Source of the DNA: Phyllosticta citribraziliensis
Taxonomy: Eukaryota
Direction: 5' to 3'
DNA length: 64,000 bases
Assembly: GCF_038025025.1 (NCBI RefSeq)
Contig: NW_027117338.1
Span: 2,356,001-2,420,000, forward strand
This document shows, piece by piece, positions 16,279 to 39,574 of this stretch (its first letter is position 1; every line of letters begins with the position of its first letter). The translations under genes were made by a program, and so were the position numbers. The notes under the pieces are model-generated. The model ran no database searches and was not told the origin of the DNA. It saw only the letters and a program-made list of their open reading frames with translations.

Positions 16279-17660
<1,382 letters not shown>

Positions 17661-19982: not shown

Positions 19983-21712
19983 TCAGCGGTTGTCGACGCA
20001 TAGATGTTGCTTCAGCCAGCAGGCCAAACCCCCCTGCCTCGACTCCAGAATTTCTATTTCCGCTTTTACATTCAGGACCAGCATCATCTGCAATTCGCGT
20101 TTCCACTCCGCTGCCGCATCATTGTCGAATACGGAGTTTTCGAGCATCTTTGTGGCCTTTCGACGGTCTCGGAGGCTCAGTCGCAAAAGACCGAGCTCGC
20201 CATGTATATCTGGATTTGGCTTGTTCCAAGTATCATTACCCTCAACCGGCAAAACGCTCGCCATCTTGACACCAAGCCATTGGATATTTGGGTTGCTGAG
20301 AGTGGCGGTTTCGTGGGCGAGTGAGTCGGAGCCGTATTTGTATGTTGATAATATGCCGATTCCATCCGGGTCAGAGTCAACCAAGCCGAGGATGCGAACG
20401 TCGGTGTGGGCTGTTGCTGTAGCTTGACTCAACGCACGGACGAGTTTCCGGGTTGCCAGATCTGGATACCCTTTTCCCTGTAGAACGTGAGCGCCAAACG
20501 CTTACAGAGGGCATCACTCGGTGTGGACGACGCGGTACAAAGACTGACTGTGATAATGACCCCTTGGTCTTTAACTTCATTCCAGAACTTGGACGAAACC
20601 AGCGAGCGAAAGGTTGCCTGAGGCTAATCAGCACAACCATCACACAAGGAACGTTGAGGTCGTAACCTCTTTCTCGACAATGAGGATCCATCGGACCGCC
20701 GTAGCATCGATGGAGTCAAGTTGATGCAAATTCGGAACGAGTGTCTCGTCGGAATCATTGAAGAGACGACGCTGCTGTTGGCCGTCTCTGAAAACCGAAA
20801 AAGCCCCAGCTACTAAACCTTTCGCGGCGGCAGTCTGGTCGAGAATTAGAAGGCGAATCGTTAAGGTCGAGCAGTAAGACCTACCACGTTCAGCGCAAAT
20901 CTGGACACCCCGAAAGTGAACGCAATGTCATCCACGTAGCGGTCGACAACAGCCTGGTTCAAGAACAAAGATGGAGTTCTGTAGTAAATCTCCCTGTTTT
21001 AGACTGAGATGAGCATCAAGTGTGCGATCACAATGCAAGATTTGATAGATGAGAAAAGAAAAAAGGACCAATGATCACCTCTTTGAAATGGGAGAATTGG
21101 AAAGCAGGCTTTCATAGATGTGCTCCAAGATACGAACCACCACAGCTGGAATGATTAGCATCAACAGAGACGTTTCTGTACATTGCACGGAACAGTACCA
21201 AATTTCCAAGCAACACGGGCAGACTTGGCTGGGTACTGAATCAGTTGAAAAGACAAGGTTTTTGATCCTTGGTTCCTTGGACGGCATTTCAGGCGCATTG
21301 TAAGCATCCCCCTTTTGGCATTGAGAACGTCCAGCATGGACTCGAAAATTGTTTCGATCTTGAGAATGACCCTCCGTTTGGCGGAACCTAATTCGGAGGC
21401 TGATTCGGCACAGGTGCCGGGCCCAGGACAACCATTGGCGACAGAAGGCGACATGGCTTCTGATTCGTCTATTATTCGAGAAATCGCTGAAGACTCTTCG
21501 ACTCGGAGAGTTTGTGCGATTGGCTTCTCCGGTGAGTCCTGCAGGTCCAAGCTGGCGGTTTTCAACAACCTTGGAGGTGAATTCTGCCAGTCACTTGAGC
21601 CGAAGAGCATATCTGAGCCGTCGAGGTCCATTGCTGAAGCGGAAGGGGCAAGCTCGCAGTCGTCGTGCGGCTCCGGGCTCTCAAAGAGCATCGAGTCGTC
21701 GTCGAAGTCCAT
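19983..21712 (-). CDS. SPO11: Meiotic double-strand-break transesterase Spo11 (topoisomerase VI A family)
   Basis: Spliced REIYY (catalytic Tyr region), AAAKGLV, IVEKEATF, GKGYPDLATR, DSDPDGIGILSTYKYGS, KAEIE. Confidence 0.93.
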
Positions 21713-22050: not shown

Positions 22051-24047
22051 ATGGCCGACAACGCACCATTCACCAAGTCGACACCGCGCAAGCGGCCCGC
22101 TCCAGACGATGGGGACTCGCACGATAGCGCCAGCTCTCTGTCGACGCCAAAGACGATAGAATCACCAGAGTCTACCCGTACCTCAAACGCTGGTGATCCG
22201 AGACAACCCTCTCCATCTCTAAGCATTGCAGGCTCCGCGACTGATTCACAGCCTGCCACCAACGGCCCTCCGACATCTACCGCCAGCTCTCACAAGGCAA
22301 AGCGCCGGAAACTCACACCCTTCGAACAGCAGCAGAAGCGCCTGGAAGAAGAAGCGAAGAAACGGACCAAGGAGGAAAAGAAGGCCGAGAAGGAGGCTGA
22401 ACAGCAGGCCAAGGATAGAGCAAAGCAGGAAAAGAAGGCCCAGGCAGAGGAAAAGAAGGCCCAGACAGAGGCAAAGAAGGCCCAGGCCGAAGCGAAGAAG
22501 AGGGAGAAGGAAGCAGCGAAGCAGAAGAAAGAAGAAGAGCAGGCTAAGAAAGCTCGGGTATGGTACACCTCCAAAATAACGGGACTCTACTGACCACTCA
22601 ATCTCTCAGGCACAAATGAAAATCGATTTCCTATTCAGATCCAAACCAGCCACTACCCCGCCTGCGGCCTCCTCTTCTGCGGCTCAGGAAAAGCCGAGTC
22701 CATCAGCACAGCAACCTGTAACTCATCAACACACTTCACCGGTGTCTACGCAAGTTAAGCCGACTCGATCCGACTACGACAAGACCTTCTTGTCCTACAG
22801 CCTGCCATCCCACACGGTCCTTGCCCCCGAGAACCACTTCTTTGCAGATCTTCCAGATTCAGCATTACAAACCGCCAGGGCACGGCTTGACGCCATTGTG
22901 TCTGGAGAATCCGAGGAGGCGCGGCGGACAATCATCAAAGCAATTGAGAAGCACGACTTTTCAAGCCTGTTCCAAATCCCAGAGGCTTTTCGAGAACAGA
23001 GGGGATTTCTCTATCCTTCGGTGAAGGAGCTTGTGGCGCAACTCAGTGGCGCATCAAGCGAGGTGGTCGACTTGACGGGAGACGTTTCAGAAGATGCATC
23101 TCGCGATGCCATGGAGAAGCTCAAGGCGATTCCTATGAAATTCCTGCGTTTCTGGGAAGACATTCGGCCTCCTTATTGCGGAACGTTTAGCAGGGTGCAA
23201 TCCGAAGAGCAGACGCGCAAGTTGGCTCTGAATCCATCTTCCAAATCACTGCCTGAGGTCAACTACGAGTATGATTCAGAAGCAGAGTGGGAAGATCCTG
23301 GTGAAGGCGAGGACTTGGATGTCGAAGATGAAGATGACGTTGAGAGCGAGTCTGGAGATGACATGGAAGGTTTCCTCGTCGACGATGACGATCCGGCGGT
23401 GCAGAACAAACGACGTCTAATTACTGGCGATCTGGAACCTGTGTGCAGCGGCCTCTGCTGGGAAACTAACAAGGGCTCCCTGCGCAAGGCGGATGGGTCC
23501 GTTGAGACGTTCCAGGGCTGGTCTGATTTCAAGATGGGAGTCCTGCTTGGTGAGTAGAGCCTCCAAATCACTGCGACGACGCTTACGCTGCCTCAAGAAC
23601 CACAACCGGCAAGCATTGATCCCTTCTCTACTGCCTATTGGGAGTCCGATCCCGCTCCTCTTCCCACCGTGCAGATTTCTCGAGATGGCTTCGGCACCAT
23701 GAATCCTCCAAGACTGCCGCTTCATCCACGTCCCGATGGAAACATGAACGGATTTCCCGCTCAGCCTACTGCGACTGGCAATGCGCCAAAACCTCCAAAA
23801 CGCACAGTCCCTCCCGAAGTGATGGCCGAGTTCAAGGCAGCCATTGAGGGCAGTGATCTCACAAAGCTCGGCTTAATCGAAGCGCTCAAGAAACAGTATG
23901 TACTCTGACCTCATCAAAGATGTTTACTAATCGGTTAGATTTCCCAAAATCCCCAAGGATGCCATCTCAAACACTTTGCCAATTGTCGCGGTCCGTGTCG
24001 GTGCCAAAGCCAGCGAGAAACGCTGGGCACTGTTGGACTCGACCTGA
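22051..24047 (+). CDS. RLF2: Chromatin assembly factor 1 subunit A (Cac1/Rlf2)
   Basis: K/E/R-rich coiled coil; PIP-like QMKIDFLF; MKFLRFWEDIRPPYCGTF; YEYDSEAEWEDPGEGEDLD; C-terminal LTKLGLIEALKK..FPK..K...KRW. Confidence 0.92.
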
Positions 24048-24783
24048 ATTTGATCATCCGACCTGCCAAAAAATCCATTCCCATGGATCATTGCCTACAA
24101 CGAGTCTCGGCCTGTTTTCTGCTGGCACAGCACATGAGTTGTTTTAGTATCCTGCCATGAACAGGCTATCCAAGTGTAAACACTTCATACCCGACTGTAC
24201 CATTACCGCGATTTCAGAGGAAACATTCCTGCGTCAAGATTGGCAGGACATCAACAACTCCGTGGCTTCCGGGGGGCATAGTATTTACACATCGGAGAGA
24301 TGAACAAAGGCTGCATGGGAGAGCTGAGCGGATGATGTGCATATTTAGAGTTCGGCTGGGACAACGGGGTCTGCACCATGTGCGGAGGATTGCTTCTAGT
24401 AAGACAGACTATAAATGGACTGCTTTAGCTGCATGATAACAGGGACAGCGCAAAGAGGTTATGCAGGTTCGCAGAGAGCATTCCAGCCGCACGCCTGGTG
24501 CTTCATCCGAGGCTGTCATTTGCGTTAGGTGTCGCGTCTGCTCCACGGCTCGGCGCGTAAGTTGTCAGAGACCCCAGTCAATACTTTATTTGAAAACCGA
24601 CGGGCAATGAAGCTCCGATCGTGCTTGTTCAAATATTGGCTTTGGCCAACGACGCGACTTTGACAGATGCGGTCTCCTAAGCGCATCTCTTGGTGGTGGC
24701 TCTTGCTTGTGACATCATCCGAACACGTCTTCCGACTCCGTGCCGACTTTTTACCTCCATAACAACAACACACTCTGCGGCGC

Positions 24784-26528
24784 ATGGTGAGCATCTCAGC
24801 GTTGACAAAGGAAGCATCGGCTTCCGATGTCAATCCTCCAGCCCAACAGGGCTCGTCCTTCTCCATCCTCGAGGTCTTGGCTTCTATCGCCCTGATCTGG
24901 TACCTGGCAGTGGTCGTTGTGTGCACGGTGGGCTACACTCAGCTGTAAGCACCATGGCTCTCGCGCGCCTTATAGCTACTGATTCTGCTCGCAGGAGACG
25001 ATGGTACTCCTCAGTTCCTCCACCGGCCTTCTCCGTCGCGTCTTTGCCTGAAGCCGAAATTCCGCACGTCACCGTCATTCGACCCGTCAAAGGCCTAGAG
25101 CCCAGTCTTTCCGAATGCCTCGCCGCAACTTTCCACCAAACCTATCCCCGGGAGAAGTTGGCCATCTTCTTTTGCATATCGTCGCGCGACGACCCGGCGT
25201 ATCCGACTCTAGTCCGCTTGGTCGACGAGTTTCCTGCCTTTGACGCGCACGTCCTGGTCGAAACCGATGATCCTTACCTCCAAGATGACGGCACTGGCGG
25301 GGTCAAACTTGGCCCCAATCCGAAGATACGCAACATGAGCAGAGCATACCGCGAGGCCAAAGGAGACATAGTTTGGATCTTGGACTGTAACGTGTGGATC
25401 GCAAAAGGCGTATGCGGGCGGATGGTCGACACGCTTTGCGGCTTCGGCGGGAAGAAGAAGAACAAATTCGTCCACCAGCTGCCTCTGGTCGTCGACACTG
25501 ACGCATCTGCGTACTGCGAGGAAGCGCAGGGCCTGCTAGGCTCCGGGGCAGATGGGCAAGCCGGGCAAGCCCATGCAGCCTTTGGAGAGCTTGCGGCCTA
25601 CTCCCGCGATTCTGCTCCTTGGAGATCCCGGCTTTGGCGCGTTGGTGGTGGAAGGCTTGAGGAGCTCTTCATGTCTTCTTCTCACGCAAAGTTTTACACG
25701 GCCATCAACACGGTTCTGCTCGCGCCTTGCATTGTTGGCAAATCCAACATGTTTCGCCGTTCGCACCTCAACTCGCTGACTGGACCCTCTCCCGAGCAAC
25801 CAGAGGGCATAAACTTCTTCTCCGAAAACATCTGCGAGGACCATCTGATTGGCGACCGGCTTTGGAAGAAGAAGATTCCCGAAGAGCACCTCGGCGAGAA
25901 GTGGGGCAAGCATGCCATGGTTTTTGGTGATCTGGTCATCCAGCCCATGGCCGGCATGAGCGTGAGCGAGTACATTGCGCGTCGAGTGAGATGGCTGCGA
26001 GTGCGCAAGTTCACCGTGCTGTTGGCGACGTTGGTAGAGCCGGGCACTGAAGCTTTTCTGTGCTCCCTGTACGGCGCTTTCGTCGTCACGACCTTGCCAT
26101 TTTTCCACGACACGCTGGGCATCCCTCAGACCTGGACGGCTTTTTGGACGTTTTGGATCCTCAACGTTGCCGGCTGGTGTACTGTTGACTGGACACTGTA
26201 CCGCAAGCTGCACTCGGGGGCAACGCTTGACATCGATGAGAACACCCCATCTTTTGCACGACCCCACAAGACTGCGAACGGCACGCGGAGACCCTTCTAT
26301 CAGTGGTTCATGGCATGGCTGGGCAGGGAAAGCCTCGCGTGGCCCATCTGGGCTTGGGCGGTATTCGGCGGCATGACCGTCGCTTGGAGAGGCAAGAAGT
26401 TTTGGGTTGGCATGGACATGAAGGTTCATGAGATCAAGGGAAAAGAGAGGGCGGAGTCATCTAGTGGCAGAGCGACGCAGAACGGGAGCAGTAATGGCTC
26501 GCCTCGGAAGAAGGTCAGGAGTGACTAG
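24784..26528 (+). CDS. GCS1: Ceramide glucosyltransferase (glucosylceramide synthase, GT21)
   Basis: N-terminal TM helix then an intron; [46 protein letters not shown]. Confidence 0.93.
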
Positions 26529-27063
26529 ATCAGTGCAGACGAGTATATAGGTTTGTCAATGTTGAGCGCGAGATCATTCATCCCAAGTCTTGGAGTTTCA
26601 GTATGCTGATGGACCGGGAAGAAATTCGTCTAACTCAAGCTGCACGCAACAAAATTTATCTGAAGGACTGACCTTTTCCCCTTTTCGCGGCTGATAGGCT
26701 CCGGAAGTTGCACTCTCGATGATCCGACCGACTTGGTGGCGCACAAGCTGGCCCCGAAAACTTCCATATCAGTTTAGCGCTGACGCTCAGCAACATGACC
26801 AGCGAAGAGCATGGTGAGAACCACGCCTCTGGATCCCCTCAGGAGGTCTGGAACTTCGTCGCTGCCTCGCGCCTCCTTTTACAATAACGGCTCACTAACT
26901 TCCGGCAGGACATTTGTTCGGGTCGTGTGTGCTTGGAAAGAAATCTTCCTTTCCATTCTCTCACTATTTTGACAGCATCATGCTTGGCTTGCAAATCTGC
27001 CTGGGCCTTTTGAGACTCGATTCAATCCTTCAGAATCTTCAGTTTTTCAGACGAATGAATTGA

Positions 27064-27874
27064 ATGAAACACGACAAGTCGCCGCAAAGTTTGCACAGTA
27101 TGGCACTCTTCGCTCAAAGGGAAGCTGTGAGTTGATACGCCAAGACGTGGGCGCGCACCATGCTAACTAACCTTCTCGCAGCCAGCGATCACTAGTATCC
27201 CAGTGATTCTCTGCGGTGGTCTTCTTATTGAATTACGCGGTGCACTTCGACGAAGAGGCCGTCATGACGAGGCCGAACTCTTCCGTAAAAGAACTGTTTT
27301 AGAGGGCACCGCCTATGTATGCCCTCTCCACAAGCGCAAAGGCCTCTGTTACGAAATGTATACCGCCTCTGTCTGTTTTCAAAGGGTTCAAACACTTTGG
27401 GTTTCGTTGATCATGGAGGACAGCCGCTTACGCGCGGAGGGGCCTTTGATCAAAGCAGTCAATATTGACCATCTTCCCGGGACCTTCGAGCCCTCCACAT
27501 ACGGCATCGATCCAAGAGCCGTGGATAAACATCCCAAATACCGTCCATTCTTGATGAGACCCCCCATGATCCTTGCTGAGAACATGAGATTTCGGTCACT
27601 TCCAGACCCGACCCTTTTGGCCAAGCGCCCTGCCGACTCACCCGCGGAGTCAACAACTTCGAGGAAGATGATAACCACCAAGGTTACCTCGTGGCTCGAT
27701 GGAGACGGTACCAAGACACCAAGTGCGGTCATCAAACAGGAGGATACCCGCGATGAGGAGATCACAGAAACATCCGATTACGCCACTTGGCAAGATACTG
27801 AGCAGGGACGGGACTTCGACGTCAGCTTTGAGGCTTTCGAGAGCATCAAAAGTTTCCTTCAGGCACGGAATTGA
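27064..27874 (+). CDS. Orphan protein A (paralogue of 28323-29051)
   Basis: Short first exon MKHDKSPQ...QREA, intron GTGAGT...CTAAC...CAG ending 27181, then a long open exon; colinear similarity to the neighbouring ORF. Confidence 0.6.
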
Positions 27875-28322
27875 TGTCTGGAAGGCGCACATGGCAGAAG
27901 TGAGGGACACAAAGCGACATTCTCTCGTGTTCTTCTTTACATAATCTAACATTGCGCAAATATACTCAGAGTTACAATGGCAGTATTCCAGCCCCTCTCA
28001 AAAGGGGAGGATCGATTGAGCACAAACATAAAACGCACGGGACCATTGCGACGTGGCACTGTCATCGAAGCCGACATATCATGTCGACCTGTCCCGGCGC
28101 TACAATCACATGGGACGGGTGGACTCAAGTCACAACGAACAATGTGTGTGCATTCAACTCTTCTATTTTCGGCGTCAAGCATTGTTGATGATATAGAGCG
28201 AAAACAAGCGTTTCTTGTGGAAGAGTATACGAAATAAAAACAAGCCTGTGAAGGAACAATTTCAGTCGGAACTGAGTACAGAAGAGAGATATCCAAAACC
28301 CCCAGTAGACAAAGACGTGCAA

Positions 28323-29051
28323 TCAATTCAAGTCCACTCCCATATTCTTCGCCACGAAGTCTCTGACGAGGGCAAATGTGCTGTACTCGATGGTGTTGCC
28401 CTGTCTGCAACACTCGACATAGTCCTCGACAGTCTTCATCACGTCGTCCTTGGTCGCCGAGGTGAAGTGGACAACTTGTGTTCCGTCAGCAGTTTTGATG
28501 GTTGCTGAGTAGGAGACATCGACTGTGGGTGCTGCTGGGGTCTCCTCGCACTTGATGACGGGTTCGTCGGATTGCGGTTCAGGTGGCAACGTGGGATAAA
28601 GAGCATATGTTGGGCAGCCGGGGTGAAGGATTGGGTTATCCTGTATTTCGTCGAGGAACATCGGCCGGTCGAGAGGGCGGACCGGCGAAGGACTGGGAAT
28701 GGCCCTAGTCGCAGCTACGGCATGTGCCTCAGGGTTGTAGGCCTCCTCGTCGGTGATGTGGAAGGGCATCGACCGGTCGCCGTTCCTGAAGGCGCGGAGG
28801 ACCAGATTGCCGCAGTCTGGGATGCAGGGAAAGGCGATGATTGCTGTTTTCCAGTACTTCTGAATCCGGTGGAAAGTGGTTGACGCGTTGTTGACGATCA
28901 TTGGCAGTCCTAATTCGTGGATTTGGCTATCAAGCCAATCCGCTGCGATGTGATATCCCATATGCCTGAGGGTCCCCGAGACGCGCTTGACGACTTTGTC
29001 GTTTAGCTCGAAATCGGCATGGGTGAAGTCGCTGGGTTTCGAGTTCGTCAT
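28323..29051 (-). CDS. Orphan protein B (paralogue of 27064-27874)
   Basis: 242-aa ATG-initiated ORF; probable leader intron 29055-29103; similarity to protein A. Confidence 0.7.
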   Translation of the reverse strand: MTNSKPSDFTHADFELNDKVVKRVSGTLRHMGYHIAADWLDSQIHELGLPMIVNNASTTFHRIQKYWKTAIIAFPCIPDCGNLVLRAFRNGDRSMPFHITDEEAYNPEAHAVAATRAIPSPSPVRPLDRPMFLDEIQDNPILHPGCPTYALYPTLPPEPQSDEPVIKCEETPAAPTVDVSYSATIKTADGTQVVHFTSATKDDVMKTVEDYVECCRQGNTIEYSTFALVRDFVAKNMGVDLN

Positions 29052-29420
29052 TTTCTACGCAGCAGTGAGCACGTATCCTTTTCACTGTGAGTCCAGTTCA
29101 TACAAAGTCTTGATAGGGAAGATGTTCGCGCGTATGGTTGAAGAGAAAACGTCGGTTCGAAGTCTAGCTTAGCAAGACTTTGCAGATAGATGGGACGAGA
29201 TGGTTGTACTCGGAAAGCGAAAGGAATTGACCGGGGTGTGGGCAGTCGCCATTTTATGTCCACAGTTTGTGCACGAATTGTTGAGATTCCAAGTCGTAAG
29301 GTTGGAATCACCTTACCACAAACCAAACTTCAAGGCAACTCCTTTGTTCCGAGGCTTCGCCACAATTCGCAGTTCGACCAAAGTCTGAGCCTCGTTTCCA
29401 GGACCTCAACGTATAGATGT

Positions 29421-30282
29421 ATGGACTCCTTCCTGTCTTTTCTTCATCCGAGCCAGGTACGCATCTCTATCTCTGAACCCCTGCCCAAAAGTTCAGGGGT
29501 CACGATGACATTATTGGAGCGCACATATGCATCTAATCCGGAAGCCAGGGGGTGGCTCCAAATTTACGTGCCGAAAGCCATTAAACCTTGGCCAACGGGT
29601 CGAACGCGACTTCCATGGTTGCCTGACGCGTTCCAAGCAGAGGGCATTTGCTCAGGGTCCTGGACGTGCGTTCCAAACTCACAACCCCGCAGCGCAAAGA
29701 GAGCGAGGCTTGGGAGCACACACTTTGGCGCACCGGAGACGGGGAACCGGAAAGCGAGAGATACCTTTCACGGCCGAAGCACTGACAGAAAGCAATAGAG
29801 CTTCTTACCGGGATGAAGTAGGCCGCATTTCAGTTTGTGTGCCAATTTTTCCCATTGGACGACTCCTGAGGAAACGCCGGAGTGTGAGATGCTCTTCATC
29901 CGGACTACTCACTTTTCCGTCATCTCAGGTGGCGAACGCCTTCGGGAGATTCCCATGCATTCGAAAAGGATGGTCCTGGAGCAGGTCAACATGCCCAGCG
30001 AAGGCGTGCCACTCATTATGTGGCAAAGTTCCCGAAAGTCGAGTAACGTTTTTTGACGAAAAATGTCCTCACTGCTTTCTGTGTGAACAGTATCTTGATG
30101 ACCTCCATCTCGACCAGATTAAGCATCTTGATGGGCTGATACACCACCCACAAAACTCCGTGTTGAGCTCAGTTTTTGGTCTCTTTGGTAGCCTGGCATC
30201 TCCGGAACTGTCGTTGCTGAAATACCCGAGCGGTTCTGGAAGCTTACGGCGCCAGCGCTTCTGTCTTTCGACCAACTCGTAA
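29421..30282 (+). CDS. Possible multi-exon orphan gene
   Basis: ATG 29421 plus three phase-compatible GT..CTRAC/CTCAC..AG introns give a continuous frame (...GSWT|ASYRDE|VANAFG...PESR|YLDDLH...); no recognisable domain. Confidence 0.3.
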
Positions 30283-30608
30283 GGCGTTAACATATCGTTC
30301 CACGCCCAAAGCAAAGAATTCAGGGCCGTTTGAACTTCTTTGTCCTACGATCCGTCAAGCAGAAGAACTTTCAAGCCGGACGCGTCCTGTCATTGAAAAA
30401 TCAAGGGTTAGCAATCAGTACAACTACTTCGAGCAACAGCCAAGAAAACACCTCCCTTCACGCTTTCGATGCACTGAACCTACTGGCGACAGGTTGTTCT
30501 GGGCAATGCTGAAGCCGGGTTCACTTTCAGCGCGTGGTTCTGGCGCACTTACCTCCTCCATCTGTGTGGGCTGCGGCAGATTCCTTCACGTTCGGCGTGT
30601 GATCTGGG

Positions 30609-30616
30609 TATAAAAG
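30609..30616 (+). promoter_or_regulatory. TATA box (TATAAAAG) of orphan gene C
   Basis: Canonical TATA about 180 bp upstream of ATG 30791, followed by a probable 5'-UTR intron 30707-30767 (GTAAGA...GCTAAC...CAG). Confidence 0.5.
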
Positions 30617-30790
30617 CAGACTCAACTCCAGCTGCCTCATCCGAGAGTCAAGAGCTTTCCAGATCTCACCCGCACAAGCCTCTATAGGTGAAAGAGCTCA
30701 TCCCATGTAAGACGTCGAAATTGGTGGTCCCGTTTCGAGCGAAAGAATGCGCTAACCTCTGTTCCAGCACTCTCCAGCGAAACCAGCGTC

Positions 30791-31816
30791 ATGGAATATC
30801 CCAGATTTGGTCCGAGAGCCCGCATGGCAGCAGCACGAGGCTATCCAATTCCAACGCCCAATCTGCAATATGTGGACTACGCGTTCAACGTCTTTGGGTA
30901 CGCCATGAAGATTCCCGATGGCGTGGAAAAACGTGGCTCCAGCATAAACGCATACGAGTTCGACGGCTGCAACTGGAAGGAAAAGTTGGCTGAGGCGAGG
31001 GCGCAGGGCCAAGACGTATACCGCAAGACGTTTGACTTCACCCCGCGCGAGCTTTCGGACGAAGTCGATGCACGCGTCGAGAAGTATTTTGTTGTTGGCC
31101 TCACCTATTCCAAGATCCCTCGCCACGTCTTGAAGCTGCACCCAGCGCAAAAGCCACGGCACCCCGTTGGTAACGTACTCCACGATGAGGCTATAATCGG
31201 TGCATCCGATTCGCAGATCCCAACGTTGGTGGTGGCTCCGGAGGTCAGGAAGTCCGGCGGCCCTAGCACTCTCTTTGGCCTGCTTTGTCCGCGCGAAGGA
31301 CTTTGCCAACCGATCCCAATCCAGAGACGCAGCGTGTTCTACTTGATCCACTATCGCGATGACGCTACCACCTTCAAAAAGCGAGAGCTGGCTTGGAACA
31401 AGCTTATTCAGAGGTACCAGACTCTCCGCCGGCCCAAGAAGGCCAAGCTGCAGCCGGCCCCAGAAAAAGCGGCCGAGGAGCCGCAACCTGTGCCTCCGGT
31501 GCAGAAGGACGTCATGCATTCGTTCATTGACAACAATGAAGGCGGTTGGGAGGACGGTGACTCGGGGTCCTTTGCACGCGAGTTCCACCAGAAGTGGCCA
31601 GAAGCACCAACCTTCAGCAACGAGGACATCTCTCTGGTAAAGCGTCAACTCGTCGACCAAGAGATCATCATCGAGCCTCGTCTGCTCCGCCCGTTCGTCA
31701 TCCAAGTGATGACATGGCTTCGAGATTTGAGGTCATATGGTGTAGACGTCGGGCGGGTCGCGCAACAAGCCATCGATCAAATCCGCGTGCTCTTCGGCGC
31801 TGGCACCAATGAATGA
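30791..31816 (+). CDS. Orphan protein C, 341 aa
   Basis: Long ATG ORF with TATA box and leader intron; basic stretch RRPKKAK may be an NLS; no family recognised. Confidence 0.7.
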   Translation: MEYPRFGPRARMAAARGYPIPTPNLQYVDYAFNVFGYAMKIPDGVEKRGSSINAYEFDGCNWKEKLAEARAQGQDVYRKTFDFTPRELSDEVDARVEKYFVVGLTYSKIPRHVLKLHPAQKPRHPVGNVLHDEAIIGASDSQIPTLVVAPEVRKSGGPSTLFGLLCPREGLCQPIPIQRRSVFYLIHYRDDATTFKKRELAWNKLIQRYQTLRRPKKAKLQPAPEKAAEEPQPVPPVQKDVMHSFIDNNEGGWEDGDSGSFAREFHQKWPEAPTFSNEDISLVKRQLVDQEIIIEPRLLRPFVIQVMTWLRDLRSYGVDVGRVAQQAIDQIRVLFGAGTNE

Positions 31817-32648: not shown

Positions 32649-33644
32649 CTACAGCCCTGCCTCTATGTTTTCCAGGACCTTACCCACAATGTCCTCGAAC
32701 AGCGGAAACAGCGAGCACGCCGTATACTTTTCGACCAAGGTCCCAGGATCCCTTCTAACATCCTGCTCGTCCTGCGCCTCGGCGCTGACATCTCTTCCCT
32801 CCACCACCGTACCCTTTGGATAAACAGGACGCCTGCCCTCCTCAATGAGGCACACAAACGCCGGATCGATGGGGACGCTGCCCAGAAACGGGACGGCAAA
32901 CTCGGCCGCCATGACCTGGCCGCCGCCCTTGCTGAAGACGTGGGTGCACTCGCTGCAGTTGGGGCAGACGAAGCCAGCCATGTTCTCGACGACGCCGAGG
33001 ACGCGCACGCCCGTCTTTGCACAGAAGTTGAGCTCCTTCTTGACGTCGGACACGGCGACGGCCTGCGGCGTGGTGACGACGACGGCGCCGCGCAGCCGCG
33101 CGGCCGTCACGGCGTCCTTGAGCAGCGTCTCCAGCAGCGAGATGTGCTCGTCCGACGTGCCCGGCGGCGTGTCGATGAGCAGGTAGTCGAGACCTGGCGG
33201 CCACAGCACCGACGACAGGAATTGCCGCACCATGGCCGTCTTTTTGGGCCCGCGCCAGATGACGGCGTCGGTGCGCTGCGCGAGGATGAAGCCCAGCGAC
33301 ATGCAGCCCAGCGCGCCGACTGGTCGCTGCGGTTGCTGCTCTCCTTCTCCTTCTTCTTCTTCTTTGCCTTCGCCATTTGCCGTCGTTGTGTTCCCGGTCG
33401 CCGAAAGCGTGTGTGCTGGGTGGACAGATACCGGCACCATGCCGCCCGGCGCCTGCGTCACCTTTGCATTCTCGATGCCAAAGAAGCGCGGGATGGACGG
33501 GCCAGTGAGGTCGATGTCGAGGACGCCGACGCTGTGTCCGCGCAGCGAAAGCGTCAGCGCCAGCTGGGTCGTGATGCTGGATTTGCCGACGCCGCCTTTG
33601 CCCGACAGCACGAGCACGATGTTTTGGACGTTTTCGAGGCCCAT
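32649..33644 (-). CDS. CFD1: Cytosolic Fe-S cluster assembly P-loop NTPase Cfd1 (NUBP2)
   Basis: [54 protein letters not shown]; lacks the Nbp35 N-terminal Cys motif. Confidence 0.93.
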
Positions 33645-34049
33645 TCTGGGCGGTTGGTGCTTTCCAGGAGCAGGTGTAGGTGGGCGTTCAGTCGGGAGTC
33701 GGGGAGAGAGGGGTCGAGCTGCTGGAACGGCTGGCGCGGTGGTGGATTGGTGGATGTGGCTGCATAGCTCGTTGCGCGCGGTGGTGATGGCAATGACTGA
33801 TGGCGGGCGGGTGTTGATTTCAAATGCGCGCGGACGCCCGACGTCAAGCGGCGGGCAGGGAGCGCGCCAAGACTCCGCTCCGCCCTGTCGTTGCCCCTCC
33901 GCCGTCACATTCTTTCATCACTCACAAGAGTCAAGAGACATGGTTTACAAGTTATTTACATGTTTCTATCAGTCTATACAGTGCCCATCCGTCTCATCAA
34001 CTCCATACAAAGCCACTTAAACAAAGCAGATACATCAATCATTTCTCAA

Positions 34050-37000
34050 CTACCTCAACCCCCAAACGCTGTCGCTAACGGGGGCCAAGTATCCACGCAC
34101 CGACCGAACAGACATTTGCCTTTTCAAAAGGGTCGGCGAGAGTCTCAGCCACGACGGACGGTTCTCGAGCCTGCCGCCAGGAGGCACGAAGCCGGCGGCA
34201 AGGCCAGTCGCCGGGTCCCTCCTGATGCCTCCCGCACGCAGCTTGCCGCTCCTCTCCTTGGGCAGCTTGGCGAGGTCCTTGAAGACGGCCTGCCAGTTGC
34301 CCAAGTATGGGTGGCCGCGGACGCCCTGGGCGCCCTTTTGCATGAGGCCGTGGCCGAGCGTGACGCAGGTGACGCCGCCGACCTCGATGGCGTGGGCGTG
34401 CGGCGCGCCATGCTGGGCGAGCAGCACAGAATATATGTTGGTCGACTGCATCGCGACGGAGTCGGCCACGGTCATCGGGAACACCCAGCTGTGCTCGTGG
34501 TAGATGGGGTGGTACGGCGTGATCCAGAGGTCTCCGATCTGACACATTGTCACGTCGCGCGCGCGCGTCTTGACTACCGCGACGACCTTGCGCGGCCCCA
34601 CTGGTGTCCAGACGGCCATTCCTGGGCGCAGTTTGCGGACGGGAATGGTGGTGCCATTGGCAATTTGGACGCGGCAGGAGCCCGCGAAGCAGGGGTTGTC
34701 AACGCGGTTGAAGTCGGCCATGGGGGTTTGGGCGGTGGTTTTGTCCGCGGCCGACATGAGTGAGTCTGAGCGCGTGCGTCCGAGATTGGGACGAGAGGGC
34801 TTGGGCCCGGGAAGGCTGTTGAAGCAAGAGTTGAGTTCTTCCAGGTACTTGCGGAACATAGGGCTGTTTTTCCCGTATCTACCGTCCTTGAAAGAAGTGC
34901 TGATTTGGTTTCTGTGAGCGTGCAGCAGCGAAGGCACTGAAGATGGGATTAGCATGAGACATGACGGCGAGATGGAAAAGACCTACGGTAGTGCACACCC
35001 CAGGTCCTAAAGTTGAGGTCTCCAGCCAGTGCAGTTCGGATCTGCCCCTTGGGATCTTCGCCATCCAAGTCTTCGAGCAAGCCATCGTCAAGCTTGTCGT
35101 CAGGTTGGCCGTCTTTCAGGATCTTGACAAGCTGCTTCAGCTCGGCTTGGGCATTCTGGAGCGCTTCATGCTGCGCCGCAAATCCAGTGTCTTTAGGGGC
35201 AGACAACGAGGATAGGAACTCGCAGACCTTGGCACGAGAGACGTGGTAGTTGACAAGGTCAGACTCGAGAGATGAAACCTCGGACACCTGCGTCTTTGCG
35301 CTGGCAACGTGGCAGACATCGCCAGGAGCAGTGTAAACGAGCGTAGCAGATACCCCGGCATCATCAGTGACAGTGCCAGACTCGTATTCGAAAAAGACGT
35401 CACGAGATTGGCCAAACTGAACGTTGTTGAGAGAGAGAACAAGTTCGTTGTCGGACTTGTGAGAAACAATGGCGCCCTTGGGAATCTTCAGCTCGAGGCC
35501 GCCAGTGGTTCGCAGGGTCAGCTTGGCGCCAGTAGCAAAGGTGGAGTAGAAGTTTGCCACGGCGTGGACGAGCACCGTGCCTGCGGGAGTCAGCATCGTG
35601 TTTCTCAGCCCCAGGGGACTGGTGACTTACCCAGCATGCCTGCGTCGGAAATGAATGCATAGTTCCCACCGCCGACCTCTGCAATCGACTGCAGAACGTC
35701 GGACCTAATCTTGTACCCGAATCCAAAAGTGTGGATGGACCTGGGGGCCTTGAGCTGGGCATGGGTTCTCTTGAGCATTGGCTTGAGCTTGGAGATGTAG
35801 TCAGTCTCCGGCTGGCCACGCTGCTTGGGCTCGCCGTCACTCATGAGGTAGAGAGCGGCCGCATTTCCAGAAGCAGAGGCACGGTCGAAGAGCGTGTAAG
35901 CAGTGCGAAGGCCCGCCCAAAGGTTTGTCTGCCCAGAAGGCTCGAGCTCTTCGAGCTTGGAAAGAATAGATTCCTTGTTCGCCTCATCCATAGGCGCAAG
36001 GGGCTGCAGGACCTTTCCAAACATCAGCTATGGCTCGGGTTGTCGAAAAGGGGACTCACATGAGCTTCGTTGCCAAAAGCGACGAGACCCAGCCTGTCAT
36101 CCTCGTCCATGGTCTCGATAATTGAGCGGATGGCGTGCTTTACAAGATCCAAAATGCTAAGGCCAGTATCCTGAGATGAGTCAGGTAGACGGGCGGCGAC
36201 GGCCATGCTCTGGGAGACATCGATGGCGAGCACGAGGTCGACAGCGTGACGGTTCAAGTTCAAGGGCTTCTCTGGAGGCTGGACTGAGACGATCATGCCG
36301 GTCTGCGTCTGGAGAGGGTGGAGCTCGACCTTGGCCTTTGCGTCGCTCTCTGCAAGACATTCTGCGAGGGACTGCGACGCCCAAGTCTGGGCCCTGCTCA
36401 AGGTGGGCCTCTTGGAGCTGAAGGAGCTTCTGGGAGAGAAGGGGTTGGGCTTGAAGTCTTCATCTATCAGATCGTCCACTCCGCTTTCCGGCTCAAAAAG
36501 GCTCTTCTGGTCGAAGAAGCCAAAAGTAGGGCTTGAAGGACTCATTGGAAGAGGGCTCATTGCTCCAGGTGACATGATGCCGGGGCTCATCGTGCCGGGA
36601 CTCATGGGCGGCGAACAAGGAAGAGTAAAGGATCGCTGAATCCCTCTCGGTGATTTGGGTTCCCGTTGGAAAATGTTGGTCCTTTGGGAAGAAGCGTCAA
36701 TGGAGTTGACTTGCTTGTCGGCGGTGACTCCAGGGTTGTTTTTGCCAAAGCGCTCTTCAAAGTTTTTGACCTCCTGTCCTTCGTTGATCGTGGTCATGTT
36801 CCTCTGCGCCGATTCCATGACATCTCCCTCATCATACACAGTCGTAACGCGGGTGTTCTGAACCAATTCTCCTGGGCTGAGGCCTTCGTGCGCATTGGAG
36901 GTAGTGAGCGTCCTGGTCCACTTGAGTGGTCTGTCCTCGGTAAGATTCTCAATCGTTTCCTCGAGGTATTCGGCCTGTCTCGGCTCTTCGTAAACAGTCG

Positions 37001-37052
37001 TGATTGTCGTTGCTTGGTTCATGTTGCCGTTGATGTTCGTGTCGTTGATCAT
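34050..37052 (-). CDS. von Willebrand A + Vwaint + Vint (Hint) domain protein
   Basis: MIDAS DVSQSM; GQTNLWAGL; SDGEP; IHTFGFGY; WGVHYLPSLLHAH (Vwaint); CFAG...ITPYHP...VTLGHG...HPYLG (Vint Hint domain); three introns. Confidence 0.88.
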
Positions 37053-39574
37053 TTCAGTGAAGGAGTCTTGGCCAGAAACCTTGAAAGGTCAGTATGCTGG
37101 CGTGATCATGAAAGAGCTTGTTATACCATGTGTTTGTTGAAGGATAGGTCGTAAGTCGTAACACTAAGTCAAAGGGAACGCAGAGGGCTCATGAACAGCG
37201 ATAGAAGAGGCACAGAATTGATAAAGACAGACGCAACAGTGGGTGCCCGCTCAGTCGACAATATCTTGACCAGAGTATCGACGAACTGAACAAGAAGCCA
37301 GATAGCGATTTGTTGCAAGTTGGATGAGTGTCGTCGGCCTTGTGGAAGCAGCTACTCAATGAAGGGCGAGGGGCTTAAGTGCTATCGTGCGGTTCCCCAG
37401 GTCTCCTGCATCGCCCTGGTGGATTCTCCCGAGGCGCTGGCCACTCTTGTTCCTGCCAGCACACGTTCTTTGCGTAGAACCACTTGAGTAATGGCCACGC
37501 CAATGGAACCATTGGAAATGCGCAGGGCTGGCCTGACCGGTTGTAGTGGGGAACTACAGATCGTTCAGATTTTCAAGGGGGAAGAGCATCGTTTGCACCT
37601 TGTTTTTCGCCCATTTTCTTCATGGGGTTTGATAGAATGGGTCTCAGCGACTCGTCTATCCGAGAAGCCATCGTCTACACAGACTGTTAAGACTGTTTCC
37701 AGTCGCGCTCAACGATTTCCTTCTTTTCTCGCCAGAGAAAGCGGTGCAGGGCAGAAGTTGCGGTGGAGGTGGGGACGGGTGTCTGTGCGAACGCGTTCGG
37801 TCGTCACCGTCCCCCACAAAGGCACGGACGTTTCTGTGTTGTGCACTTGCACGGTTCTTTGGTGTCTTGATCACCAAGTGCTTCCACTTCCGCTGCGTAG
37901 ATCGCATTTGAAGAGGCTGTCTTTGTGGGAGGCTGGCATGTCTGCTGAGCATGCTGTTCAGGAAGTCTCTTAGAGGCCCCTTTTGCGGTGGAAAATGATG
38001 GGGGAAGCAGCGTTTCATGCAGGCCAGACCGCAACTTTGAAGATTACGCGCCGAGTCTCGGACTAGGGAATTCTACCCGCTCTCCCCATCCTCAGGCTTT
38101 CTGCTCTCCATGTCAGGCGCCACGGGTGGCTATCCTGAGACCCTGGATTGGTCTGCTGCAGCCGTCTCAGATAGGACCTGCTGGTCGATATTGGAGCATG
38201 TTCAGCTGAGGATGAGCGTGATGAGCTTGAGGTGCTGTAGGGTTGTTTCTGCTCGGGGCTCGTGCGGCGGGAGTCTCATGTTTGATGCCTACCCTCTGGG
38301 CTTAGCGCCAGTCTCACCCACCTCTTGGAATGCGTGCCGCAGAAAACTTTTCGGGTCTCGTATCCAAAAAGGGGCCCTCAGCTATCGTGGGCTGCAAAAG
38401 TAGTAATCGACTTTCCTCTTCCGATTATTTTGAGCCTCCGAATAAGCGAGTTGCGTCATCTGTCACTGGCGTGATGGCGAGCATAGCACGTCGAAATTCT
38501 AGAAGGCTGGTGGGTAGTTCGATGCAGGGTGAGTTCATGCCTGGTAATGGCGAATGCAAACGCCCGATCCAACAGCCAGCGATGCGGTCAGCGGCGGACG
38601 ACGAGACGAAGTGGAATTGCAAGCCGGGAATTGAAGACAAGTCCCGCATCGTTTGGGAGGGACCGTACGCAAGCCACACGAAGGCTGGAATGCTTCGGCA
38701 ATCGTCTGAGGAATGATGAGATGGAAAATGAGGTCGCGAATCTGGCCGGCGCACGAGGATTTTTACGATCTCAGGAACTCTCGCGTCTCTGAGAGCGGGT
38801 TCCCCTGACGTTTTTGCGGCCCCAGGGTCCGCGGGAGGTTGGAAGTTGGTGACCGTGATGAGGTGCAGAGCGGGCCGCTGGGACCGTGCCTGAGAATGCC
38901 TCAGTCTGGCCTGTGCGAAACCGGTCACACGCACATGCGTTTTGCGAAATCCGAACAGCAGAAACGAAGGCAGAGAAACCGAACACTTGTCTGAGAATAC
39001 GAGCAGGGGAAACATGTCGGGGATTGCGGGCTCCGTTCTTGCAACTTCAACACCTGGGACGCTGGTTCACGGCCCCGGCCGGTGACCCATTTATGGCATG
39101 GACGCCGTTGCAAGACAAGCCACTCAAGACGGCCAGTAAGCGCGCCAACTTGGGAACACGACTGGAGCTAGCGAAGGATGAAAGGGGTTGCCGCCGTTGC
39201 AAAGGTTGATGGTTGTAAATTGCGTGTCGTCGTCGTGGCGCAGGAGGGCCAGCAAACGACTGCCAGCGCAAGTCTACCGAGGATTGTCCGAAGTGGTCGT
39301 TTCGGGCATGACCTCCCTGGCGACACTTCCTTGCATCATGACAGCTCGACACGATGGACGAAACGCTCCATCGTAAAGCGCTTGAATAGACATACTTTGG
39401 GATGATCCCACCCGGAACACCAGGACTATGTACAGGATGTCGAAAGGATACGTATCTGGCTTGAACAGGTTCAGACAAATGTGATGGCTATGATCGAACA
39501 ATATGCCAGCAGCGTGGTATGATCAAAAGCAAAGAGGTCGACGCCGCAACACCAGGGTATCTCGTTCTAACTGA

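Follow-up and report, generated by a model that had tools for sequence, protein, structure and literature searches.

Two tail-to-tail orphan genes of Phyllosticta citribraziliensis are probable remote paralogues from a small, uncharacterized protein family

Introduction

Are two neighbouring genes without any recognizable domain unrelated orphans, or are they copies of one ancestral gene whose kinship escapes a routine pairwise search? The question is raised by a locus of Phyllosticta citribraziliensis. In a 64,000-nucleotide stretch of contig NW_027117338.1 (positions 2,356,001 to 2,420,000; this whole stretch is referred to as the window, and all positions below are counted within it), two convergent genes, here named A and B, face each other with 448 nt separating their stop codons. 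Gene A lies on the forward strand and has a product of 251 aa, and gene B lies on the reverse strand and encodes 242 aa. A first-pass annotation, made by eye from the sequence, had described the two as cryptic, highly diverged paralogues retained after an old inverted duplication, had recognized no family for them, and had mentioned fungal allorecognition and killer/antidote loci as possible parallels. The comparisons reported here bear out the paralogy. Judged from sequence comparison, A and B are likely (probability roughly 0.8) to be remote paralogues that arose by an old local inverted duplication within a tiny, uncharacterized family of Phyllosticta-type fungi.

Results

The protein family of gene B

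A phmmer search with B against 1,835,955,588 representatives returned four proteins at E ≤ 0.001, namely B itself, P0004, P0006, and P0005. P0004 (357 aa) is 43% identical to B and matches in both its N- and C-terminal parts (E 9.6e-42), and P0006 (453 aa) matches B with an E value of 1e-7. One further member, P0002, was contributed by word-indexed searches; this protein of 243 aa is 85% identical to B over its full length, while the other relatives are 31–43% identical. Source names exist for two of the relatives, both from Phyllosticta: P0002 is hypothetical protein IWX90DRAFT_412904 of P. citrichinensis, and P0006 is hypothetical protein HDK64DRAFT_338761 of P. capitalensis. P0005 (1246 aa, matched by the C-terminal region of B in 19 stretches) was rejected as a member, being the translation of a tandem repeat with a unit of ~53 residues that reached an E value of 3.7e-8 through repetition; translated repeats can evidently beat E-value cut-offs in a representative library.

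The family proteins are 242 to 453 aa long and vary greatly in the lengths of the linker and the N-terminal extension. P0002, P0004, and P0006, none of which has been characterized, share the two-domain architecture of B and its signature motifs. The N-terminal helical domain carries the signature ..LN..V......L....(A/G)A.WL....(V/I)V.N(A/T)S..F.RI.K.W..A, and the C-terminal module, of ~60 residues, carries DY...C..G....(Y/F)..F..(V/I)R.F and is predicted, with low confidence, to form a β-hairpin and two helices. Between them lies a linker that is probably disordered. It is rich in proline both in B, where it is short, and in P0004, where it is long; that of P0006 is strongly acidic. Inspection by eye, rather than with a predictor, found no evident signal-peptide-like hydrophobic stretch at the N-termini of the family members.

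None of A, B, P0002, P0004, and P0006 matched a Pfam family at E ≤ 10. The best match in a sequence-profile search of the PDB was eosinophil RNase 2, over 42 residues (E 0.02), which was judged to be due to chance, and ESM Atlas searches with B and P0004 gave no usable match. Scans of metagenome contigs with the family alignment and with A yielded 42 and 135 pattern stretches, respectively, of which none was upheld by tblastn. In the titles and abstract openings of the Phyllosticta literature on orphan and lineage-specific genes and comparative genomics, the family is not mentioned. The two genes can hence keep the orphan status first given to them, in the form of a genus-restricted family: A and B seem to belong to a tiny, uncharacterized group found so far only in Phyllosticta-type fungi.

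Gene A is linked to the family through intermediate relatives

The assignment of A was addressed with a profile hidden Markov model (HMM) from which A had been left out, built from an alignment of B, P0002, P0004, and P0006. With hmmsearch, this profile scored A at 16.9 bits in two collinear domain matches, one in the N-terminal and one in the C-terminal part. When shuffled versions of A were searched with the same HMM, 2141 of the 3000 were reported and the highest score was 7.3 bits. Among the 976 stop-to-stop open reading frames (ORFs) of at least 40 aa in the window, A ranked second after B (E 1.5e-4), followed by a third ORF at 6.2 bits. A comparison of the four-sequence profile with A by hhalign gave an E value of 2.6e-4 and a probability of 42% over 74 columns of the N-terminal domain. 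In addition, single relatives matched A in pairwise BLASTP searches: the C-terminal module of P0004 did so with an E value of 3e-4 (27% identity over 101 aa, plus a collinear segment of the N-terminal domain) and the N-terminal motif of P0006 with an E value of 0.011.

The two HMM matches fall on definite blocks of the A protein. The core motif of the N-terminal domain, TAS..F.R.Q..W...ED......G.LI (27362..27451, forward strand), pairs profile columns 90–119 with A residues 82–111 and is the best-conserved block that A has in common with the B family. The C-terminal block DY..G..F..F (27722..27865, forward strand) pairs columns 297–340 with residues 202–249 and spans the second strand of the predicted hairpin together with the helices after it. 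In a five-sequence MAFFT alignment, 15 columns are invariant, including S57, F60, R62, W67, G81, Y211, G218, F226, and F232 in the numbering of B. A thus has two of the features by which the family is recognized, the core motif (N/T)(A/T)S..F.R(I/V)...W followed by D/E..(I/L)....G.L(V/I), and an extreme C-terminal module consisting of a hairpin and then (D/E)Y ... G ... (Y/F)..F..(V/I)(R/K).F. Two others are absent from it. The (A/G)A(D/N)WL helix, which separates the first helix from the core motif, corresponds to a gap in the alignment, and hhalign places the HDEAELF segment of A opposite this helix without conserved residues; the otherwise invariant cysteine of the C-terminal module (C215 of B) is also missing. 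Since both the A.WL helix and the cysteine are lacking, A is best described as a divergent rather than a typical member; it shares both conserved blocks with the Phyllosticta relatives, though with far lower identity. On these grounds A and B are very probably homologous, a conclusion for which the intermediate relatives provide the decisive evidence, the direct signal being marginal.

Direct comparison of A and B

A BLASTP alignment of A exon 2 with B is collinear over nearly the full length, with 52 of 235 positions identical (22%) and 44 gap positions, and has an E value of 0.28 as a single comparison. The check by pairwise shuffling bore out the similarity most clearly over the full length: the semi-global score of 40 (shuffled mean 9.2, standard deviation 5.1, z 6.0) was reached by none of 2000 shuffles of B, and the local score of 48 (mean 32.0, standard deviation 5.1, z 3.1) by 22 of the 2000. 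At the DNA level, only short inverted matches of 15–22 nt occur between the two genes, five pairs in 2.7 kb.

Four of the five collinear blocks that had been paired by eye, GALRRRG../GTLRHMG.., TAS..F.R.Q..W, FEPSTYG../YNPEAHA..RP, and DY..QG..F..F, were reproduced in the BLASTP, hhalign, and MAFFT alignments. The fifth, VIKQEDT/VIKCEET, was not co-aligned. It reflects a real inverted match of 22 nt (I1, 77% complementary), which is one of the five comparable ones just mentioned, and the two peptides occupy different places: VIKQEDT lies in the second strand of the C-terminal hairpin of A, and VIKCEET lies in the linker of B, ~12 residues before the hairpin. The same applies to the ψ-K-x-E motif of the SUMO type that both proteins were said to keep. 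It is indeed present in both (IKQE at residue 205 of A, IKCE at residue 166 of B); because the positions are not homologous, however, its sharing is coincidental as far as descent is concerned. At the site of B, P0004 has AKQQE and P0006 has TIETE, so the motif is not kept in the family.

Single-sequence AlphaFold2 models of B and of A exon 2 show a similar order of elements, with two N-terminal helices and a C-terminal hairpin followed by helices, but these models are poor and the resemblance is unreliable. A complex prediction for B with A exon 2, run without alignment or controls, gave a score of 0.00 and weighs neither way.

Gene structures and transcripts

Both genes have intact reading frames and give rise to spliced transcripts. 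The runs used for this, X1 and X2, carry the label 'RNA?' as a guess and were treated as RNA because their contigs lack the GT..AG introns described below.

The gene A transcript, as covered by a spliced X1 contig, extends over 26754..27982 on the forward strand, 26754–27126 being joined to 27182–27982 and the contig being identical to the window; the minimum lengths are 310 nt for the 5′ leader and 108 nt for the 3′ untranslated region (UTR). Coding exon 1 (27064..27126) comprises 21 codons and begins with the ATG at 27064, which is immediately preceded by an in-frame TGA. A second in-frame ATG, at 27100, lies in a more favourable context (A at −3, G at +4). The intron (27127..27181) is 55 nt long, in phase 0, with GT..AG borders and a CTAAC branch-like motif, and its removal is documented by the 27126–27182 joint in the X1 contig; an intron-retaining form is also seen in a low-depth X2 contig (26849–27182). 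Coding exon 2 (27182..27874) contributes 230 codons of open frame and the stop codon at 27872–27874. In the searched protein sets, an ORF of 172 aa is the sole record of the gene, so A is missing or truncated there. The leader contains upstream ORFs, among them one of 53 codons at 26811–26972 and one of 27 codons at 26980–27063, and the TGA of the latter abuts the main ATG (TGAATG). This arrangement could permit termination–reinitiation, or could repress translation of A.

The coding sequence of gene B (28323..29051, reverse strand) is a single exon of 242 codons plus stop, and P0002 is annotated with the same start. The spliced leader has an in-frame stop 21 codons 5′ of the ATG and no further ATG between the two, and therefore the 242-aa model stands. 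An intron of 49 nt with GT..AG borders is located in the 5′ UTR (29055..29103, reverse strand), ending 3 nt before the ATG, as seen from the 29054–29104 joint in contigs of both X1 and X2. The last exon is covered over 28165..29054 on the reverse strand, from 28170 by the X1 contig and from 28165 by the X2 contig, which sets the 3′ end near 28165–28170. On the protein, the N-terminal helical domain comprises approximately residues 8–116 (28704..29030, reverse strand), P0004 matching residues 8–142 and P0006 residues 10–95. The C-terminal domain, delimited from the family alignment, comprises approximately residues 176–237 (28341..28526, reverse strand), and a low-confidence AlphaFold2 model places strands at 180–187 and 190–197 and helices at 201–216 and 223–237. 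Nine upstream ATGs were counted in the last 700 nt of the B leader examined. Contigs of the leader (29104–31200) extend 5′ of 29400 by ~940 nt in X1 and by ~1800 nt in X2, and reach a third gene, an ORF of 374 codons from stop to stop on the forward strand (30692–31816). Either the leader of B is very long and rich in upstream ATGs, or these unstranded contigs merge divergent transcripts that overlap.

Based on the covered transcript ends at 27982 and 28165, the gap between the two genes is at most ~180 nt. In both genes a short intron lies a few codons from the start of the homologous region. This shared placement fits a duplication that took in the intron, although the alignment of the N-termini is not secure enough to press the point.

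Divergence of A from B

A is a basic protein (pI 8.3) and B has a pI of 5.2. Residues 21–39 of A are hydrophobic (Kyte–Doolittle mean of 1.82 over 19 residues) and are followed by a basic RRRGR...RKR cluster; this segment could serve as a membrane anchor or as a nuclear signal. The GC contents of A at the first, second, and third codon positions (GC1, GC2, and GC3) are 0.542, 0.458, and 0.558; a GC2 below GC1 and GC3 is also seen in the neighbouring genes, but not in three of the four control ORFs, and, with the frame open across the spliced intron, it speaks for A still being coding. In a maximum-likelihood tree of the five proteins, with an arbitrary root and an unresolved inner fork, A forms the longest branch (2.59 changes per column) and falls outside the B group; A is thus not a recent copy of the B gene of the window. 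An old inverted duplication, as postulated earlier, would be the simplest origin of the pair.

A further view of the locus was provided by two contigs of a related organism (run X4), which are collinear with the whole stretch and in which uncovered parts denote a likeness below 80%. In the closer contig, the likeness is 91.8% for the 5′ flank of A (392 nt with 32 differences and 1 gap), 82% for the last 146 nt of A, and 93.5% for the B region (28031–29371; 1341 nt with 87 differences). The coding region of A (26997–27751) and the spacer (27898–28030) both fall below 80%. Their lengths are 755 nt here versus 736 nt there and 133 nt versus 141 nt, respectively, and in the more distant contig the segment between conserved flanks measures 798 nt here versus 803 nt. 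In its rate of divergence, A appears to be close to the spacer and to exceed its own leader, which is compatible with relaxed constraint, with diversifying selection, and with old haplotypes alike. Among the best-supported X4 differences shown, a small and selected sample outside which 174 differences lie, a residue is changed in six of nine inside B and in four of six in the C-terminal part of A.

Two observations concern the X4 run as such. It holds two collinear relatives, with depths of 67.7 and 131.4 and likenesses of ~92–93% and ~80–89%, which may be two related genomes or two haplotypes, and five of the six residue-changing differences shown in B correspond to the residues of P0002.

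Repeat-induced point mutation (RIP) was considered as a cause of the divergence. RIP-affected DNA is expected to have a TpA/ApT index of ≥0.89 and a (CpA+TpG)/(ApC+GpT) index of ≤1.03. The respective values were 0.59 and 1.16 for A, 0.41 and 1.16 for B, and 0.53 and 1.26 for the whole window, none of them RIP-like, and RIP was rejected; an ancient episode, later erased, is conceivable.

Neighbouring genes

A Pfam scan identified, upstream of the pair, a nitronate monooxygenase (16653–17489, reverse strand), an ORF with the SPO11 Toprim domain (19986–20501, reverse strand), CAF-1 subunit A (22580–23905, forward strand), and a family-21 glycosyltransferase (24681–26525, forward strand). On the other side lie a NUBPL-type NTPase (32652–33914, reverse strand) and consecutive ORFs encoding a VWA domain and then Vwaint and Vint domains of the Hint type (34053–37088, reverse strand), which probably constitute one intron-containing VWA–Hint gene. 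The ORF at 30692–31816 matched neither a Pfam family at E ≤ 0.001 nor the HMM of the A/B family, so that three consecutive genes carry no known domain. The first-pass annotation had drawn attention to SPO11 at about 5 kb; the distance from the ATG of A is in fact ~6.6 kb, and SPO11 is no more than one among several unrelated neighbours. The 101 ORFs of at least 110 aa between 12.4 and 44.1 kb yielded no HET, NACHT/NB-ARC, or similar domain, and none of the scanned neighbours suggests a locus for mating, incompatibility, or secondary metabolism.

Discussion

Weighing of the paralogy

Several observations count against remote paralogy of two retained family members. The direct A–B signal is weak (BLASTP E 0.28), and the profile that recognizes A without having been trained on it rests on four sequences, two of which are 85% identical. 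The hhalign probability is 42%, with a match confined to the N-terminal domain, and MAFFT and hhalign align the first 40 residues of A differently. The AlphaFold2 single-sequence models are too poor for a comparison of folds (mean pLDDT, the predicted local distance difference test, 41.6 for B and 34.1 for A exon 2). The two genes also differ in GC3 (0.558 in A, 0.686 in B). The coding region of A is below 80% alike in X4 versus 93.5% for B, so that A is perhaps under little constraint, and the protein searches yielded no A orthologue, none of 375 candidates being of the A type except that of the window itself.

These points bear most strongly on the state of A. A could be a transcribed relic, a true paralogue of B that is non-functional or marginally functional and drifts almost neutrally, leaving B as the sole working gene. 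The loss of likeness in X4 over both the A coding region and the spacer, flanked by better-preserved sequence on the 5′ side (91.8%), at the end of A (82%), and in B (93.5%), agrees with this, as do the lack of any other A-type protein among the 375 candidates, the low GC3, the long branch of 2.59, and a leader of at least 310 nt with upstream ORFs. However, the frame of 251 codons is intact across a frame-keeping intron despite the replacement of ~79% of the residues since the duplication. The chance of such a frame being open can be estimated at roughly (61/64)^251, and because so long a frame is unlikely to be open by chance, A would have remained a coding gene through most of its past. Moreover, A retains exactly those blocks that are most conserved in the family, and the length of the segment between the flanks is kept in the relatives (798 versus 803 nt and 755 versus 736 nt). 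A relic is unlikely, but it is the main rival among the readings that accept paralogy.

Another explanation would have A and B co-evolve as one unit, in the form of a heterodimer or of an allorecognition or killer/antidote locus, with the two genes held together by the mutual action of their products. Pairs of this kind known from fungi include het-c/pin-c, sec-9/plp-1, Spok, and wtf, and such loci show strong polymorphism. Like them, A and B are tightly linked, lineage-restricted, and fast-evolving: they are convergent, with 448 nt between the stops, and are both expressed; identity to B is 85% for the protein of P. citrichinensis and 31–43% for the other two relatives; six of the nine X4 differences shown in B, in what is a small selected sample, change a residue; and divergence is quicker in the coding region of A than in the 5′ flank of this gene. 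In contrast to A and B, the known systems carry HET, NLR, patatin, SNARE, nuclease/kinase, or multi-pass membrane modules. The pair showed no HET, NACHT, toxin, or nuclease domain, the five family members having no Pfam family at E ≤ 10, and the scanned neighbours, which are housekeeping genes, revealed no HET, NACHT, or toxin-like domain either. The SUMO-type motif is not positionally homologous, and each of P0002 and P0006 is annotated as a single protein. The proposal of an allorecognition or killer/antidote locus thus finds no backing here, and a mutually dependent unit is quite improbable.

In a related scheme, prompted by the lower X4 likeness of the A coding region than of its 5′ flank and of the B region, the locus would be a rapidly diversifying module in which B is the conserved partner, A is under diversifying selection or exists as deeply diverged haplotypes, and the two products interact. 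We consider this highly doubtful; if true, it would define a new genus-restricted family for recognition or poison/antidote-type systems.

That the similarity is due to chance, A and B being unrelated lineage-specific genes placed tail to tail by accident, is very improbable: the BLASTP E value of 0.28, the local shuffle result (z 3.1, 22 of 2000 shuffles reaching the real score), the hhalign probability of 42%, and the one coincidental block of the five would agree with it, but with the profile built without A, the score of A exceeds that of the best among 3000 shuffles by 9.6 bits and that of the next natural ORF in the window by 10.7 bits, the matches lie in two domains, in the same order and in the most conserved columns of the family, P0004 (E 3e-4) and P0006 (E 0.011) match A independently, and a single candidate, the neighbouring gene, was under test.

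Origin and possible function of the pair

Remote paralogy by an old local inverted duplication thus remains the preferred reading. Under it, B would be the canonical, better-conserved copy, and A the divergent, fast-evolving copy, in which recognizable similarity has been lost over the A.WL helix. After the duplication, A may have taken a new location or partner, or it may be drifting. As to function, the proteins could tentatively be regarded as intracellular adaptor or regulatory proteins, possibly nuclear, that bind partners rather than catalyse reactions. An intracellular location is suggested by the lack of a signal-peptide-like N-terminus on inspection by eye, and partner binding by the two small folded modules joined by a flexible acidic or proline-rich linker.

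It is a general pattern in fungal genomes that orphan families grow by local duplication, with rapid divergence of the copies. The A/B family resembles this pattern in being restricted to a genus, in comprising an inverted local duplicate with asymmetric divergence, and in having long disordered regions; it is set apart only by the extreme divergence (21–22% identity) of two copies that are both expressed with open frames.

Phyllosticta includes citrus pathogens and endophytes. For now the wider significance of the pair is modest, as nothing ties it to meiosis, mating, or incompatibility. Nevertheless, the results would define a small two-domain family that has no match in Pfam or the PDB and is seemingly confined to Phyllosticta. 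In practical terms they offer a better annotation of gene A and a candidate for the study of asymmetric divergence after duplication, and A and B would stand as a clean case of paralogy that is not seen by routine pairwise search and is recovered through intermediate relatives.

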